Of a DNA stretch of 6,658 nucleotides, positions 373 to 6,658 are shown piece by piece. The position numbers and the translations under genes were made by a program. The stretch is from a virus (lineage: Duplodnaviria; Heunggongvirae; Uroviricota; Caudoviricetes): the IMG/VR virus record IMGVR_UViG_3300007790_000263, positions 1 through 6,658 of that record; one strand, written 5' to 3'. Below the pieces are notes generated by a model. It saw only the letters and a list, made by a program, of their open reading frames with translations, was not told where the DNA came from and searched no databases. How positions within the stretch are numbered: the first letter of the stretch is position 1; every line of letters starts with the position of its first letter.

Positions 373-831
373 ATGAGTACAGAAAACTTACAACCAGAAC
401 ATCGTGATGACGGATTACCCGCTAAAATAGCAGCATTAGCAAGTCTGCAAGCCATAATTGCAAGGATGGCTTCAAATTCACAATTAATGAAAACGTGGGC
501 CATCACTATCGTTACTGGATTCATAGCTATCAAGTCGACTTTTGGTGGACTTGGGTATCTATCTTATCTAGTGCCGATTCTTATTTGCATTTCATTCTCC
601 TTTCTTGACTCTTATTATCTTTCTCAAGAAAAGATATTTAGAGATGTTTATAATAAATTAGCGGCCATTCCCGTTGGGAACGAAATGATGTACCTAGATT
701 TCAAAGGCGAAATATATAAAACTTCACAAGAAGAAAATAATTCATTAATGATTTGTTTCAAGTCCCCATCAATTAGTTTATTTTATATCCCAATGGCAAT
801 CATTTCTACAGTGATATTAATCATAGGATAA
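373..831 (+). CDS. Small membrane protein (152 aa, about three predicted TM helices); candidate effector or partner of the downstream TIR-like protein
   Basis: ORF from the track; GAGGA at 363-367 sits 5 nt before the ATG. Hydrophobic helix-length stretches at about aa 41-57, 59-78 and 133-152 (C-terminal ISLFYIPMAIISTVILIIG). Only 4 nt separate its stop from the next start, implying an operon. AT-rich codon usage matches the neighbouring gene. No family recognised by eye. Confidence 0.65.
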   Translation: MSTENLQPEHRDDGLPAKIAALASLQAIIARMASNSQLMKTWAITIVTGFIAIKSTFGGLGYLSYLVPILICISFSFLDSYYLSQEKIFRDVYNKLAAIPVGNEMMYLDFKGEIYKTSQEENNSLMICFKSPSISLFYIPMAIISTVILIIG

Positions 832-835
832 TATT

Positions 836-1654
836 ATGCTTGTTAAATTCAGAATAGATCGAAATACAATTACAAATAACAGCACAATTTTAAACGCTAA
901 TGACAACCATTTAATTTACTCAAACCTAAATGACACAGATATAAACTCAAAAATATTTGACGCTGTAAATGGTGAAATATCAGCAAAGAAACTAGCCGAC
1001 GAACTATTTCCTGAAAACGAACCACACATTTTTATATCTCATAGTAGCAAAGACGTAAATGTAGCAATAAGTCTAGCAAACACTCTTTATGCAAAATATA
1101 AGATAACATCTTTCATTGACTCCCAACTTTGGGGACATATTGACCACGCACTAAAGGAAATGCATAATCGATACTGCAAGATCCCCGGCTCATCTTATTA
1201 CCACTATGATAAATCTAATAACCTACTATCTCATATGCACGCCATACTAAGTATGGCTTTAATGAGAGTAATGGATAACGCTGACAGCGTTATATTTATC
1301 GAATCCGGCAACTCAATTTACCAATATATGGGAGATACTACCATTGCTCCCCAAGAAGCAATTGAAAAAACATCTGAAACATTATCTCCATGGATATCCT
1401 CTGAGGTGAATTTTGCAAATACCTTAAGATTGAAAGGCCATAAAGATAGAGAACAACCATTAATGGAAAGCACAGATTCATACTCTTTAAACAAGAGTAA
1501 TATTAAAGCAGACTCCTTACCCAAAATAATACATGAAGTCAACTTAAGTAAATTCATAGAGATAGACAACAAAAAATTCAAAGAGTCTTTATCATTAAAT
1601 GAAACAAATCCAATAAAAACTTTAGATATGATTTACCAAATATATGCTCAATAG
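836..1654 (+). CDS. TIR-like domain protein (ThsB-like / DUF1863-type), 272 aa, with N- and C-terminal extensions
   Basis: ORF from the track; AGGA at 823-826 upstream. Residues 64-72 (IFISHSSKD) match the first beta-strand signature of bacterial TIR/ThsB-like domains (compare vFfSfhyqD). TSFIDSQ forms a plausible second strand. SPWISSE (aa 184-190, Glu codon at 1403-1405) resembles the S-x-W-C-x-x-E-l motif that carries the catalytic Glu of TIR NADases. About 60 aa N-terminal and 70 aa C-terminal to the domain have no recognisable family. Confidence 0.7.
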   Translation: MLVKFRIDRNTITNNSTILNANDNHLIYSNLNDTDINSKIFDAVNGEISAKKLADELFPENEPHIFISHSSKDVNVAISLANTLYAKYKITSFIDSQLWGHIDHALKEMHNRYCKIPGSSYYHYDKSNNLLSHMHAILSMALMRVMDNADSVIFIESGNSIYQYMGDTTIAPQEAIEKTSETLSPWISSEVNFANTLRLKGHKDREQPLMESTDSYSLNKSNIKADSLPKIIHEVNLSKFIEIDNKKFKESLSLNETNPIKTLDMIYQIYAQ

Positions 1655-1714: not shown

Positions 1715-1861
1715 AACGAGTCAATTACAATTATTTTATGGCAGGAAAAACTGACGAATCAATATCTGGTTCGGTTGCTGTATCAATACGGTTCAGCAAC
1801 ACCTAATATTTCTTCCATGCCGCCAGCAATGAGGTCTCCTCTGCCGCCACAATACCCAAAT

Positions 1862-2002
1862 CTACGGCATCCTGAAGCGGTGCAATATGCTCACCCTGAT
1901 TTTATCTTCAAAAATCCGGTCGCATCCTGCACAGTTCAACGCATTACGTTGTAGATCGGTATTCTGGTCATTTGTTGATACGCGTACATAGCCAATAAGC
2001 AT
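1862..2002 (-). pseudogene. Truncated serine DNA invertase (Gin/Hin/Pin/Cin family), N-terminal ~35 codons only
   Basis: Minus-strand ATG at 2002-2000 preceded by GGGAG. Codons 1-35 translate to [35 protein letters not shown], which matches the invertase N-terminus including the catalytic-Ser motif YVRVST, as recalled. After codon 35 the frame reads [11 protein letters not shown] and stops at 1862-1864; none of the three frames downstream resembles the rest of an invertase. Intact invertases are about 180-190 aa. Confidence 0.75.
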
Positions 2003-2028: not shown

Positions 2029-2421
2029 ATGATGCCATTTGCTCGTTATTTCTGCATTTTCATAAACGTTGGTTTGGGAGAAGCGGCTAAAAGGAATGTA
2101 GGGACAGGGGCGAATCAGATACCTGATATGGGTAGCTTCACGCTTTCTGTTTCAGGTACTGGATATCAAAAATTACCATCAGGTTTTATTCTTCAGTGGG
2201 GTTCAATCGGCGCACCAGGCATTGCACAGGATGTGGTAACCCATTTTCCGATTGCATTTCCAAACCGATGTCTGCGTGTTTTGGTCTCACAAGACTACAC
2301 ACCAGATAGCGGGGCTGTTGGTTATATTGCCTGCGCAGGTTTTAGTTCCGACCCGGTTAAATTTATATCCAGAGCCGGTACTCCAGGTCTCGGCGCTTCA
2401 TTTTTAGCGTTAGGCTGTTAA
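2029..2421 (+). CDS. Alternative tail-fibre C-terminal variable cassette (promoterless; in frame with the fibre constant region after inversion)
   Basis: ORF from the track. Its ATG at 2029 lies outside the invertible segment and has no proper RBS (AGGA abuts the ATG). From the crossover site at 2057-2082 the frame reads [10 protein letters not shown], with the same frame and GLGE junction as ENLGLGEG in the expressed fibre gene. TAA stop at 2419-2421 is followed by a good RBS and the tfa' start. Confidence 0.6.
2057..2082. other. Left invertase crossover site (hix/gix/pix-like 26-bp site, TTTTCATAAACG-TT-GGTTTGGGAGAA)
   Basis: Inverted relative to the site at 3925-3950: its right half GGTTTGGGAGAA is the exact reverse complement of the left half TTCTCCCAAACC of the other site. 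Has the AAACC-NN-GGTTT core architecture of hixL (TTCTTGAAAACCAAGGTTTTTGATAA, from memory). Lies 55 bp from the invertase start. Confidence 0.75.
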
Positions 2422-2442
2422 TTTAGCTATATGGAGTGAAAA

Positions 2443-2883
2443 ATGAATTACATATATTCCGCGACTACAAACTCTTTCTATCCACTGGAAATGAAAGAGG
2501 ATTACACTCAAGCTGACTCATGGCCAGATGATGCTGTTGAAGTTGATGAGCAGGTGTATATTGAGTTTTCCGGATTACCGCCGGAAGGAAAAATCCGTAT
2601 CGCTGGAGAAAATGGTTTTCCTGCATGGTCTGAAATTCCACCACCAACACCTGAGGAACAGATTGCTGCAGCCGAACTGGAAAAGCAGCAACTGATTAAT
2701 CAGGCCAACGATTATATGAACAGTAAACAATGGCCTGGTAAAGCGGCTATTGGTCGTCTGAAAGGTGAGGAACTGGCGCAATATAATCTGTGGCTGGATT
2801 ATCTGGACGCACTGGAGCTGGTCGATACTTCCAGTGCGCCAGATATTGAATGGCCTACGCCTCCGGCAGTTCAGGCCAGATGA
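2443..2883 (+). CDS. Tail fibre assembly protein, alternative-orientation copy (Tfa' / U'-like), 146 aa
   Basis: ORF from the track; GGAGTG RBS at 2432-2437. C-terminus DIEWPTPPAVQ carries the W-P-x-x-P ending typical of Tfa chaperones and parallels DVIWPELPEA in the convergent tfa. Lies directly downstream of the alternative fibre cassette. Confidence 0.75.
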   Translation: MNYIYSATTNSFYPLEMKEDYTQADSWPDDAVEVDEQVYIEFSGLPPEGKIRIAGENGFPAWSEIPPPTPEEQIAAAELEKQQLINQANDYMNSKQWPGKAAIGRLKGEELAQYNLWLDYLDALELVDTSSAPDIEWPTPPAVQAR

Positions 2884-3457
2884 CATCCGGCGCGGTGCTG
2901 GTATCTGTTGCCGTCACCGCGTCAATGTAATCCAGCACAGCGTTAAGCCGGGTTGTTTCTGCCTGCGTCAGTTTCCGCCCGGCCTGTAATTTCAGCTGAA
3001 TCAGACTAATGGAAGCCATTGCTGCATCAATCAGTGACTGGCGCTGTGCTTCTGCCGCTTCTACTGCGGCACCGTGTTGTGCCTCAGAATCTGTCACCCA
3101 TTTCTCACCATCCCATTTATCATATGTCGTTAACGGGACGATAGTGGTTGTATTTTCAGGGTAATCACCCGGAGCTGTGATTTCTTTTGCTTCTCCTGTT
3201 TCGGTGCTATAGATAATTTCACCGCGATGGTCTGGCATATATTCCCATGAGTTTAAATCTACTGAACGGCAGATTGCATAACCAGCCTTATATGTGCCAG
3301 GAGCATCTAAACAGGAATATGCCGGGATACCGACACCAACGGCAAGATATTCATTTGAAGTGGAAATATATTCCCGTGTTTCACCATCATAGTTATAGAC
3401 GGTAATATTCCCCGCCTTCGTGGCAATAAGTTCGCTATTTAATACGGCTTTATCCAT
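2855..3457 (-). CDS. Tail fibre assembly protein (Tfa / U-like chaperone), 200 aa
   Basis: ORF from the track. Its start overlaps the fibre stop (TAATG at 3455-3459). C-terminal DVIWPELPEA motif. Sits immediately downstream of the tail fibre, in the position of Mu U / P2 G. Confidence 0.8.
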   Translation of the reverse strand: MDKAVLNSELIATKAGNITVYNYDGETREYISTSNEYLAVGVGIPAYSCLDAPGTYKAGYAICRSVDLNSWEYMPDHRGEIIYSTETGEAKEITAPGDYPENTTTIVPLTTYDKWDGEKWVTDSEAQHGAAVEAAEAQRQSLIDAAMASISLIQLKLQAGRKLTQAETTRLNAVLDYIDAVTATDTSTAPDVIWPELPEA

Positions 3458-4275
3458 TATGCAGCTCTCACGATATAGTTAAATGCAATATTTCGTGGAC
3501 GGGTTTCGCTCCCACCTGTGTTACCAATACTCCCTCGTGTATGTAGCGTTGGTGATGGAATCAGAGTTCCTCCGGCATCGGCAGCATCAAGCCCCCGGCC
3601 TTGCGTATATGCTCTTCTGAAGATTGTCGCCAGTTCCCATTCCTCTTTTGAATCATACCCATCGTTGGCAACAACAATATGGCGGTGTTTTTCCAGCATC
3701 CCAGTCTGAATGCTCAATAAAGCACGTCCTGCATCAATACCACGCCCGTCATCCCATCCACGAATAAACTCACCACGGAGATCAGGTAGTTTCCCTGATG
3801 GATATGCTGTAGCAAGATGGGGATATTTCACCTTATCAAAGGCAGCGCCGTTGCATTTCAGCCAGCCCGTTGGCGGGGTTGCGGAGGGCCACGGAACAGG
3901 CACACCAACAGGTAATGCAGAGCCTTCTCCCAAACCAAGGTTTTCGAGAGCCGTTTTCACCGTGCCATCCGATTTGATATCACCAAACGGATTCTTGCGG
4001 CTCAGGTATTCAACAGCAAACCCCGATCCCAGCAATTCAACAAAACCGGGCAGATCACCATTATCAAGCACATCCCGTTGCGTTTTATCACTTACAAACT
4101 GGGCCAGAGCTGCAGCAATAAAGCTGGCCTGCCGAATAACCTTATTGACTTGCGCACTGGAGGCTTTCCCTGCTGTAAATCCGGATAAAAGCGCGGGCAA
4201 CGCTTCCCATTCCTCCTGCGATATAACATTGGCATTTCGATCCGTTGCAAACGCTTTAAAGTCATTTTTCGCCAT
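3457..4275 (-). CDS. Tail fibre protein (constant N-terminal part outside the invertible segment, variable C-terminal tip inside it)
   Basis: ORF from the track (longest form 3457-4293). I prefer the ATG at 4275-4273 (MAKNDFKAF...) because it overlaps the upstream stop as ATGA and has GGGGAG about 10 nt upstream, whereas the 4293 start has AGGAG only 1 nt from the ATG. C-terminus ...[19 protein letters not shown] matches the conserved ending of Tfa-dependent fibres (lambda Stf / T4 gp37 / Mu S type, from memory). The crossover site lies in-frame at ENLGLGEG. Confidence 0.8.
3925..3950. other. Right invertase crossover site (TTCTCCCAAACC-AA-GGTTTTCGAGAG) inside the tail-fibre gene
   Basis: 26-bp site with the AAACC-AA-GGTTT core, close to the hixL consensus. 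Inverted partner of 2057-2082. Falls at about codon 112-118 of the fibre gene, at the constant/variable boundary. Confidence 0.75.
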
Positions 4276-4955
4276 CAGAGTAATACTCCCCATGCTCCTA
4301 CATCAAAACCACTGATGAATTCGTTATCCATATCAAAACCAAAAAATTTTGAGCCTTCCGATGGGGTTTCCACCGAAGGTGTTTCAATGCCACCCGCCCA
4401 TACCCCGGCGGCTTTTACTGTGAGATACCCCTGTTTAATTGCCGCAATTAACTCACGCGATACATCTGAAATATCAGTATCAGGAAAGACCCAGACCGAT
4501 ATCGTCATGTCCTGGTTATCGACTATCTGCATTCGCAGCCCGGATCCTGCTGTTGCAGCGTCAAGAATTGCCGGAAGCGAATCATTCCGTCCATCCCAGT
4601 TATTAATCGCAATCTTCGCTTTAAGAATGACACGATAAGTTTCATCGCTGAGGTACATGTATCCGGAATCAGGATCGTATGGTCCCTGCCATACCCCCTG
4701 ATCATATCCAAGCCCGTCGGTATCCCAGCTGAAATAGACACCTGAGATAGGCTGGCTGACAACACGGCTACGTCCGATCCACAATCCCAGAATGTCAAGT
4801 TGCACACCAACCGCAGAGTCAATATCAAATGCAGTAATCAGCCCTCTGGTGGCAGCCGCAACATCAATAAGCGGCCGGGTCATCAGATCAACATGCGCAA
4901 GAAATTTAGGTTTGGTGGCGTGGTAGTTCGTGATTAGTTCGGTGTATTTGCTCAT
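4275..4955 (-). CDS. Phage baseplate/tail protein at the gpI position (226 aa)
   Basis: ORF from the track; GGTGGAG RBS upstream. ATGA overlap with the J-like gene upstream and with the fibre gene downstream. Function is assigned from its position in the V-W-J-I-H-G order; I do not recognise the sequence confidently. Confidence 0.65.
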
Positions 4956-6151
4956 GACTCCACCGTTATAACGATATTTTCCGGGGTACAGGACGCAGAT
5001 TCGTTGTATCTGATATCAATGTTTGATGACGACAAAACCCCCGGGGATTTCCCAATCGTCAGTTCCTGAATATCGTAATAGCGTGCATTCCCGCCACTCA
5101 CCACGCCAAGATTCGCCGGTGAGTAAATGCGACTTAAAAGGACCGAATCACCAATCGTCAGACTATTGATATAGTCGGAAATAGCCTGCTGGATCTGCTG
5201 CCCTATCTGTGAGGTATAACCCGTAAAAACTTTTAATTTAATCAGGGCATAAACAGGCACATCACTGGAACGCGAGAATTTGATTACATGGGGATTGCCG
5301 TATTTATCCGGAACCGTAACGGATGTTGTACCGTGAGTGGCTGTCCCCTGGCCTTTATTCCCTCTGATAGCCTGAGCAATATCCGTCACATCACCGCCAT
5401 CCACAATTACAGCAACAGAGTGTGGCGGTAACCCGTTACCGTCCTCCGAACCAGTATCGTTTTCATAGAGTTTGTGGCGGGTTACACCGGTAACATTAGA
5501 AACAGCACCATCCAGTGCTTCAAATGGGGTTATTGATGGCAACGCAACACTTTGCGACTGGCGGATACGTAACTCAGCGTCAGTTTCTGCCGGAGTGCCC
5601 ACAGTAGCCGCAGCAGGATTAGTTACCGAAACCCAGCCACGGGTTGGCGTATTAATTTCAGTGATAGTTCCAGCCAGCGCCGCCACTGCACCACTGACGG
5701 AACATGTTGCGGTCACCATCACTGTACCATCCACGCCGACCACCACTGAAGCAGGCAAACGCCATATCACATTATTACTGTCTTTCACGCTGCCATTAAT
5801 GATGGTTGTTCCGGCAGTTCCTGTAAGAAGCAAATCAACCGTAGAATTCGTCGCGCCTTTACGTGAAATACCATTTATTTTCACGTTACTGGTCAGTGCG
5901 GCTCCATAGCCGGTTGCTGGTGAAAAACAGTTGTAGACAGTTATCGCCATATTATTGGCATCATGAATCGCCAGCGCCATCAGAGCCACCATCTGGCCGT
6001 CTTTGCTGTCCGGTTCGAGGTAGGCATCACTGCCATAAATCTGCTGAAAATAGCTAATCAGGGTGCTGAGTATCGTCTGATAATCAGGCGCACTGATCCC
6101 CTCTGCGGTTACCTTTGCAGATAAACCGAGAGAATCAAGGTTCAGAGCCAT
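4952..6151 (-). CDS. Baseplate J-like protein (399 aa)
   Basis: ORF from the track; GGAGG RBS 4 nt before the ATG. TAATG overlap with the upstream gene. Internal PAETDAELRIRQ resembles the E-[ST]-D-x-x-L-R motif I associate with Baseplate_J proteins. Size and position fit P2 gpJ / Mu gp47-like proteins. Confidence 0.7.
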   Translation of the reverse strand: MALNLDSLGLSAKVTAEGISAPDYQTILSTLISYFQQIYGSDAYLEPDSKDGQMVALMALAIHDANNMAITVYNCFSPATGYGAALTSNVKINGISRKGATNSTVDLLLTGTAGTTIINGSVKDSNNVIWRLPASVVVGVDGTVMVTATCSVSGAVAALAGTITEINTPTRGWVSVTNPAAATVGTPAETDAELRIRQSQSVALPSITPFEALDGAVSNVTGVTRHKLYENDTGSEDGNGLPPHSVAVIVDGGDVTDIAQAIRGNKGQGTATHGTTSVTVPDKYGNPHVIKFSRSSDVPVYALIKLKVFTGYTSQIGQQIQQAISDYINSLTIGDSVLLSRIYSPANLGVVSGGNARYYDIQELTIGKSPGVLSSSNIDIRYNESASCTPENIVITVES

Positions 6152-6504
6152 TACGCCTCCGATGTAACAGTCGTTATTCCATAGAGAGTGTCGATTTCAG
6201 TGGAAAACCTGACACGTCGGGTCGTGGTATCCACCGTAGTATTGAAAGAGAGGATTGATTTAACGCCCCGCGTTTCGAGGATGCGCTTACGGATCGCCAG
6301 GTTGTAGGTTTCCGGCTTCTGCTTACCGAGTACGGACTGGATCCACGGAGTCCCCTCGGTGGTGTCGAGAAACCATTGCCCATACCACAATTCGAATCGC
6401 GTTTTTACCGCCTGCGCCACGGCCTCCGGTGAGTTAATCAGCCAGGTGTCATCACCGCTGCCAAAGGTGTAATCGCCATCGGCGTCTTCACGTCTGTATC
6501 GCAT
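6151..6504 (-). CDS. Small baseplate protein at the gpW / gp25 position (117 aa)
   Basis: ORF from the track. ATGA overlap with the upstream spike gene and TAATG overlap with the J-like gene. Size matches the small wedge subunit class (P2 gpW is ~115 aa). Family assigned by position and size only. Confidence 0.6.
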   Translation of the reverse strand: MRYRREDADGDYTFGSGDDTWLINSPEAVAQAVKTRFELWYGQWFLDTTEGTPWIQSVLGKQKPETYNLAIRKRILETRGVKSILSFNTTVDTTTRRVRFSTEIDTLYGITTVTSEA

Positions 6505-6658
6505 CAGTTTACCCCATCGGTATTGCTTCCACCGCGCTGAACACCGCCATGAGTGTGCGTATCATCGATTGGCTTGCCGTTAGCCTTAACGCTCCCCAAG
6601 AACTCAACAGCACCAGTGATTTTTGAAGCCACACCAGAAACAACAGACCCCACCATGC
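6504..6658 (-). CDS. Partial CDS (C-terminal 50 codons; N-terminus beyond the window): candidate baseplate central spike, gpV-like
   Basis: My manual minus-strand translation of 6656-6507 gives an open frame ...MVGSVVSGVASKITGAVEFLGSVKANGKPIDDTHTHGGVQRGGSNTDGVN, ending at TGA 6506-6504, which overlaps the next start as ATGA. The HxH motif (THTH) near the C-terminus is consistent with the His-coordinated metal site at the tip of P2 gpV-type spikes. Not in the supplied ORF track because it runs off the window edge. Confidence 0.5.
   Translation of the reverse strand, partial: MVGSVVSGVASKITGAVEFLGSVKANGKPIDDTHTHGGVQRGGSNTDGVN

Follow-up and report, generated by a model that had tools for sequence, protein, structure and literature searches.

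Can a switchable tail fibre still be inverted when the invertase gene beside it has been reduced to a stub? The question is raised by the window, the whole 6,658-nt stretch of virus record IMGVR_UViG_3300007790_000263 analysed here, which is the tail end of an E. coli prophage with its baseplate genes (gp45-, gp46- and gp47-like, and DUF2612) on the minus strand. In KOr019, the corresponding element spans ~42 kb between yfhL and yfhH, carries a tyrosine integrase along with replication, lysis, head and tail genes, and has only two genes flagged as pseudogenes: the invertase stub and the fragment of a tail-fibre-assembly (tfa) gene next to it. The host element is apparently a complete myovirus-type prophage, and a search of the ~42 kb in KOr019 found no second invertase.

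What survives of the invertase can be delimited closely. A pinE-type serine invertase gene remnant occupies 1893..2002 on the minus strand, corresponding to pin nt 1 to ~110, and keeps ~35 intact codons that include the YVRVS catalytic-serine motif. Translation continues out of frame through 1862..1892 on the same strand, where tfa fragment sequence encodes 11 residues and a stop; the stub ORF (2002..1862) would therefore specify a 46-aa product, 35 residues of invertase followed by 11 that are unrelated. The initial annotation had described just such an intact N-terminus with its serine motif, followed by divergence and a stop, and the ORF, Pfam and alignment with pinE all agree. The Pfam Resolvase match joins stub residues 3-34 to model positions 2-40 of 145 only (E 5.9e-7), and the alignment suggested at that time, of the stub with pinE, cin and gin, proved gap-free, the first 35 residues being ~85% identical to Gin and Cin. 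As the intact reference we used the 555-nt pinE of OkiPb01695, which lies in a prophage of the stub prophage's type, integrated at the same chromosomal position: nt 1-83 are identical, and recognisable homology extends to ~nt 107-110 (window 1893). Another candidate reference, vB_EcoM-606R2, was rejected as a predicted prophage region with host genes and an invertase that is itself truncated.

No full-length serine invertase gene lies adjacent to the segment, where ~110 of 555 nt remain. Neither a complete serine recombinase catalytic domain (~100 aa plus the E helix) nor a C-terminal helix-turn-helix is present, the Pfam match covering only model positions 2-40 of 145. On its coding content the stub is a non-functional invertase remnant, and RefSeq labels the same stretch in KOr019 'recombinase family protein, incomplete, missing C-terminus'. 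In hundreds of genomes, and in related prophage records of a phage collection, the matches to pinE all end at window 1893-1896. Because the junction at 1731-2002 is identical at every base in 11 independent assemblies, a sequencing error that hides a full-length frame, which the initial annotation had allowed for, is ruled out.

That annotation also held that the cargo island had replaced the 3' ~80% of the invertase gene, and here it has to be corrected. The stub directly abuts a tfa pseudogene fragment of 162 nt (1731..1892, minus strand), comprising the last ~54 codons with an internal stop and lying in a different reading frame from the stub. RefSeq describes the KOr019 copy as 'missing N-terminus, internal stop', and its translation is that of a typical Tfa C-terminus. 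Strain A34 has the same stub/tfa junction, gap-free, in a prophage that matches ours in type and location, with a cargo of ferritin-like proteins and a manganese catalase; strain 2012C-4221 has it in a different prophage, one with P2/e14-like baseplate genes, beside ompT/appY. As the junction occurs with other cargo and in another prophage, the truncation is older than the present cargo. Its distribution indicates that the truncation is one old rearrangement, in which pin nt ~110 was fused to the 3' end of tfa. The idea that the missing 3' part of the invertase lies just past the cargo was rejected, since the match stops at the cargo, and neither microhomology nor a secondary crossover site at the junction was evident in the stub alignments.

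The rest of the switch is in good order. The left 26-bp crossover site lies at 2057..2082 (reverse complement TTCTCCCAAACC AA CGTTTATGAAAA; core dinucleotide 2069-2070) and contains the e14 P-segment repeat TTGGTTTGGGAGAAG, as that repeat is given in PMC12529663. The right 26-bp site lies at 3925..3950 (TTCTCCCAAACC AA GGTTTTCGAGAG; core 3937-3938). Both are intact and inverted, with identical inner half-sites and matching AA cores, and they have in common a 20-bp perfect inverted repeat (2064-2083 and 3924-3943). The sites bound an invertible segment of ~1.87 kb (2071..3936), which, with both sites, is as intact as the initial annotation had stated.

Inside the segment are two alternative fibre ends, each with its own tfa gene. 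The expressed tail-fibre gene (3457..4275, minus strand; 272 aa; Pfam Collar; gene calls in L007 and others) has a constant N-terminal part outside the segment and a variable C-terminal part, with the Collar domain, within it, and is accompanied by a tfa gene of 200 aa (2855..3457, minus strand; Pfam Caudo_TAP). Facing them on the plus strand are a silent alternative fibre C-terminus of the Gp53-like_C type (2071..2421; Pfam, and gene calls in L008, L011, L012 and L013) and a silent tfa gene of 146 aa (2443..2883; Pfam Caudo_TAP). In the opposite orientation the Gp53-like_C end yields a 229-aa fibre, so that inversion swaps the 272-aa Collar fibre and its 200-aa Tfa for the 229-aa fibre and the 146-aa Tfa, with all frames intact both ways. 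The 3' ends of the convergent tfa genes, which lie on opposite strands, share 29 nt (2855-2883). One further carrier assembly (L022 4393-5228, OZ040473.1) combines the same expressed fibre with another silent cassette, made up of a tfa gene for 147 aa and a fibre C-terminus of 130 aa that matches Gp53-like_C only faintly, from which it appears that cassettes within the segment are exchanged by recombination.

With the invertase body absent, the simplest expectation would be that the fibre is frozen in its present orientation, the more so if the enhancer were gone as well, and the initial annotation had judged the switch to be probably locked. A Keio deletion of pinE in K-12 was likewise reported as locked (PMC12529663). 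Comparison among relatives speaks strongly against this expectation. Our comparison set consisted of KOr019 and ten further NCBI assemblies, retrieved by the exact ThsB-like cargo protein, and all of them have the exact 1731-2002 junction. Six of the 11 carry the segment as in the window (L007, L009, L010, L014, L015 and L016) and five carry it in the opposite orientation (KOr019, L008, L011, L012 and L013), so both orientations occur beside an identical stub and cargo. A neighbour-joining tree of the ~12.8-kb loci, which are ~99.9% identical and mostly differ by only tens of sites, requires at least three changes of orientation. In the larger assembly collection, the fibre protein of the window orientation was found in 414 index blocks, about half of the 812 in which the ThsB-like cargo protein is indexed, blocks being a rough proxy for assemblies. 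Together with the retention of an enhancer-homologous stretch, described below, these observations make a frozen fibre very improbable as a general account of this prophage, and such a state could still arise in a particular host without any compatible invertase. As judged across assemblies rather than within a culture, the segment inverts and the switch is not locked.

The window itself is collinear with KOr019 at 1-2083 and 3924-6658 and inverted at 2064-3943, with five substitutions that include a private SNP at position 239. There the window has C and all 11 related assemblies have T, which makes the window's genome distinct from every assembly compared; L007 and L016 come nearest to it, at 2 differences over the 6658 nt. 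From relatives this near to identical we infer that the segment also flips in the window's own strain.

A second way of dispensing with a site-specific invertase would be to accept the flips as real and attribute them to RecA-dependent homologous recombination at short inverted repeats, or to replacement of the segment from another prophage. The 20-bp perfect inverted repeat could serve the former, and the mosaicism exemplified by the silent cassette of L022 shows that segments do exchange material. Yet 20 bp is a very poor substrate for RecA, several flips have taken place among loci that are ~99.9% identical, and the inverted segments themselves remain 99.8-99.9% identical among assemblies. 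In every case, moreover, the outer half-sites stay with their flanks and the interior is swapped exactly within the 20-bp repeat, inside the canonical 26-bp invertase sites. A clean exchange of this kind is the outcome expected of site-specific recombination at the core dinucleotide, and we give recombination of any other sort very little credence. Site-specific inversion of a segment that has lost its own invertase is the reading we develop here.

Measured against switches of the Gin/Cin/Pin/Hin type, the locus has the pair of sites, the inversion and the exchange of fibre and chaperone, and lacks an invertase of its own. Its closest counterpart is the P segment of e14 with PinE in E. coli K-12, which has the same crossover-site sequence, TTGGTTTGGGAGAAG, and the same layout: a fibre N-terminus that stays constant, two variable fibre C-termini each paired with a tfa gene, the pairs being convergent, and pin transcribed away from the segment. 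Across many pinE genes the 5' end of pin is 92-94% identical. Cargo follows pin here, as it does in e14, where the cargo gene is mcrA. Unlike in e14, pin here is reduced to nt 1 to ~110 and fused to a tfa fragment, and the host is another prophage, the ~42-kb element at yfhL/yfhH. The distance from the segment boundary to the invertase start is 67 bp in the G segment/Gin system of Mu and ~67 bp here. The C segment/Cin system of P1 is alike in that its annotated enhancer lies within the 5' end of the invertase gene. Mu and P1 differ in that each encodes its own full-length invertase, and in P1 cin is also oriented oppositely relative to the segment. The Hin/hix/Fis system of Salmonella shares the 26-bp sites and the AA core, and its two-Fis-site enhancer, ~100 bp from the nearer site and inside the recombinase coding sequence (PMC3798978), has a putative counterpart here. 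In contrast to the present locus, where fibre C-termini are switched, Hin acts on a promoter that serves flagellin genes, and the recombinase coding sequence here no longer yields a protein.

These parallels direct attention to what the first ~110 nt of pin contain. In the P1 record (NC_005856), cin nt 19-90 are annotated as 'enhancer of Cin-mediated C-segment inversion'; in that of Mu no enhancer is annotated. Stub, pinE, cin and gin align gap-free across this stretch, which places its homologue at stub nt 19-90 (window 1913..1984) and leaves 20 nt before the breakpoint. The initial annotation had cautioned that the enhancer may be damaged; on the contrary, the homologue of cin nt 19-90 lies wholly within the retained 110 nt and differs from that of intact pinE at nt 84 and 86 only. 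Two Fis-type G-N13-C cores, at 1967-1981 (nt 22-36) and 1918-1932 (nt 71-85), have their centres 49 bp apart, against the ~48 bp that separates the two Fis sites of such enhancers, and keep their G and C ends. The proximal core departs from the strictest Fis consensus, is identical to that of gin and is one base from that of cin. Its centre is ~95 bp from the crossover core, in agreement with the 99 bp of Hin, whose 65-bp enhancer has Fis sites at both ends and is located ~99-100 bp from hixL (PMC3798978). By homology only, the stub would bind Fis, act as an enhancer and be required for inversion.

Is the stub kept because it has this function, or has it simply escaped loss? In the Hin family, wild-type invertases depend on the Fis/enhancer element for activity (PMC3798978); given that flipping occurs, an enhancer in cis is to be expected. 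The most diverged stub lineage, 2012C-4221, offers a comparison of substitution patterns: its enhancer and crossover site have 4 mismatches in 98 positions, versus 61 in 229 in neighbouring DNA, taken as the tfa fragment, stub nt 91-110 and the intergenic stretch (Fisher 6e-7). When the tfa fragment is left out, 12 of 74 positions outside the cis elements differ (p = 0.008), so that the cis elements differ by 4% against 16-27% for the adjoining non-coding DNA. This pattern fits constraint on the cis elements, and gene conversion from an intact pin could give the same result. One can thus suppose that the segment is flipped in trans while the stub is neutral debris, the breakpoint having fallen past the enhancer by chance and conservation being due to gene conversion rather than selection. 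A single junction event underlies all three stub lineages, so the breakpoint at nt ~110 counts only once as independent evidence; the family as a whole conserves the 5' end of pin in any case, and in A34 the contrast between cis and non-cis positions is not significant (p = 0.08).

Just one more breakpoint is at hand. In strain BCE049 (L005 5845-6111) pin was truncated independently, at ~nt 267, beside a different cargo gene (846 nt, hypothetical), and vB_EcoM-606R2 (L019 3983-4297), in which a 315-nt 'DNA invertase' coding sequence likewise lies beside an 846-nt hypothetical cargo gene, may represent the same truncation. Against neutrality stand the low divergence of the cis elements in 2012C-4221 and the dependence of the family on Fis and its enhancer. 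We consider neutral debris rather unlikely, a serious alternative nonetheless, and favour a stub that serves as the enhancer of an invertase supplied from outside.

Where such an invertase might come from was approached with a chimeric query made up of the cargo and pinE nt 121-555, the part absent from the stub, with the cargo alone as the control. In each of the three complete stub genomes, KOr019, P4 and FP4, the chimeric query matched two chromosomal places and the cargo alone one, so each appears to hold one other candidate, a match to the body of a pinE-like invertase. Among complete E. coli genomes the chimeric query matched 4650 of 5426 and the cargo alone 12; essentially all of the 4650 matches are therefore due to the invertase body. 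The initial annotation had reserved the possibility that another invertase in the genome acts in trans, and this caveat now describes the most likely case. The search for other invertases that it proposed succeeded in part, giving one further chromosomal body match per complete stub genome and none inside the prophage.

Precedents for one element's invertase flipping another's segment exist: the e14 P segment is inverted by PinQ and PinR, the Salmonella H segment by Fin of Fels-2 and the Mu G segment by PinE (PMC12529663). Those cases differ from the present one in that the target locus has, or in the wild type had, an invertase of its own, whereas here dependence on a foreign enzyme is the natural state, in 812 index blocks. 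The same study, in which the Fis enhancer goes unmentioned, describes the P segment of the K-12 Keio pinE deletion as 'locked' despite the presence of pinQ and pinR (PMC12529663). Since both of those genes were intact in the deletion strain, trans-inversion is not automatic. Keio deletions remove nearly the entire coding sequence, so pinE nt 19-90 would have been lost along with the rest, and we infer that the 'locked' phenotype reported in 2025 may reflect loss of the enhancer and not of the PinE protein.

The truncation, the intact sites, the retained enhancer-homologous DNA and the repeated clean inversions beside an identical stub are direct observations. Joined with the homologies described above, they make it likely that the locus is a fibre switch of the Pin/Gin type which no longer has an invertase of its own, retains its cis elements and is inverted by an enzyme acting in trans. 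In outline, the old fusion of pin to tfa would have destroyed the invertase gene of a Pin/Gin/Cin/Hin-type switch at the end of a prophage, and the remnant would retain all of the cis elements needed, namely the two 26-bp sites with their AA cores and the enhancer-equivalent stretch (nt 19-90); with these in place the segment could still invert. A Pin-family invertase from elsewhere in the genome, presumably the acting enzyme, would bind both sites, the Fis-bound enhancer in the stub would activate it, and inversion would exchange the fibre C-terminus together with its chaperone.

The cargo beyond the tfa fragment has a history of its own. It consists of two genes on the plus strand (373..1654, identified by PADLOC): the first (373-831) encodes a 152-aa protein that matches PDC-M50A (E 3.7e-26) and, from hydrophobic stretches judged by eye, is likely to span the membrane; the second (836-1654) encodes the TIR-like, ThsB-type protein of 272 aa (ThsB1, E 7.7e-43). 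A Pfam search with both proteins gave no match. Thoeris systems combine ThsB with ThsA; here the 272-aa protein matches ThsB1 and its neighbour matches PDC-M50A rather than ThsA. The cargo probably represents a pair of anti-phage defence genes at the end of the prophage. Directly after the ThsB-like gene is a hairpin with a perfect 10-bp stem (1684-1711, the GTTGGCACAT-catatac-AACGTGCCAAC region), likely a terminator between the convergent cargo and tfa fragment.

Fragments of the tfa 3' end, 130-160 nt long, recur beside differing cargo in different prophages (window 1731-1892; L003 6470-6601; L002 5976-6137; L004 5953-6105), the cargo being ThsB-like, catalase/ferritin, or a ThsB-like pair in a lambdoid prophage. 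In strain STK77-E the cargo pair, at 85% identity, lies beside a tfa 3' fragment in a lambdoid prophage, as if the handle travelled with the cargo; a retron is also present in that neighbourhood. The tfa 3' end looks like a recombination handle for the exchange of cargo downstream of fibre genes, to judge from this recurrence. Where it borders on the cargo, pin has also been eroded repeatedly from the 3' side, and so far the 5' enhancer region has been kept every time.

Pin-family invertases have been known to complement one another in trans since the 1980s, which leaves the novelty here modest, and the locus is best regarded as a modest variant of a known system. What is new is that a prophage lineage appears to depend on an outside invertase as its natural and widespread state, and that what is left of the gene corresponds to the putative enhancer. 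An invertible segment with no invertase gene beside it need not be a frozen switch, as the ability to flip is decided by cis elements, one of which, the putative enhancer, is hidden here in the first 90 nt of a 'pseudogene'. For annotation, this means that short pseudogenes labelled as recombinases missing their C-terminus, where they lie beside fibre genes, may be functional DNA elements. The locus also suggests another account of a published knockout phenotype, that of the 'locked' pinE deletion.

We offer a broader proposal tentatively, and would put its chances at somewhat below even. The 110-nt stub may persist because it is the recombinational enhancer, in a lineage that outsources its invertase to the other prophages of its host, and the segment, the enhancer stub and the tfa handle may form a module that moves between unrelated prophages, such as those at yfhH and at ompT/appY. 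As a corollary of this proposal, the 'locked' P segment of the Keio pinE strain may be read as a lost enhancer rather than a lost PinE. Host-range switching would then be set by the resident prophages, and for the prophage described here it would hinge on invertases encoded by other elements in the cell.
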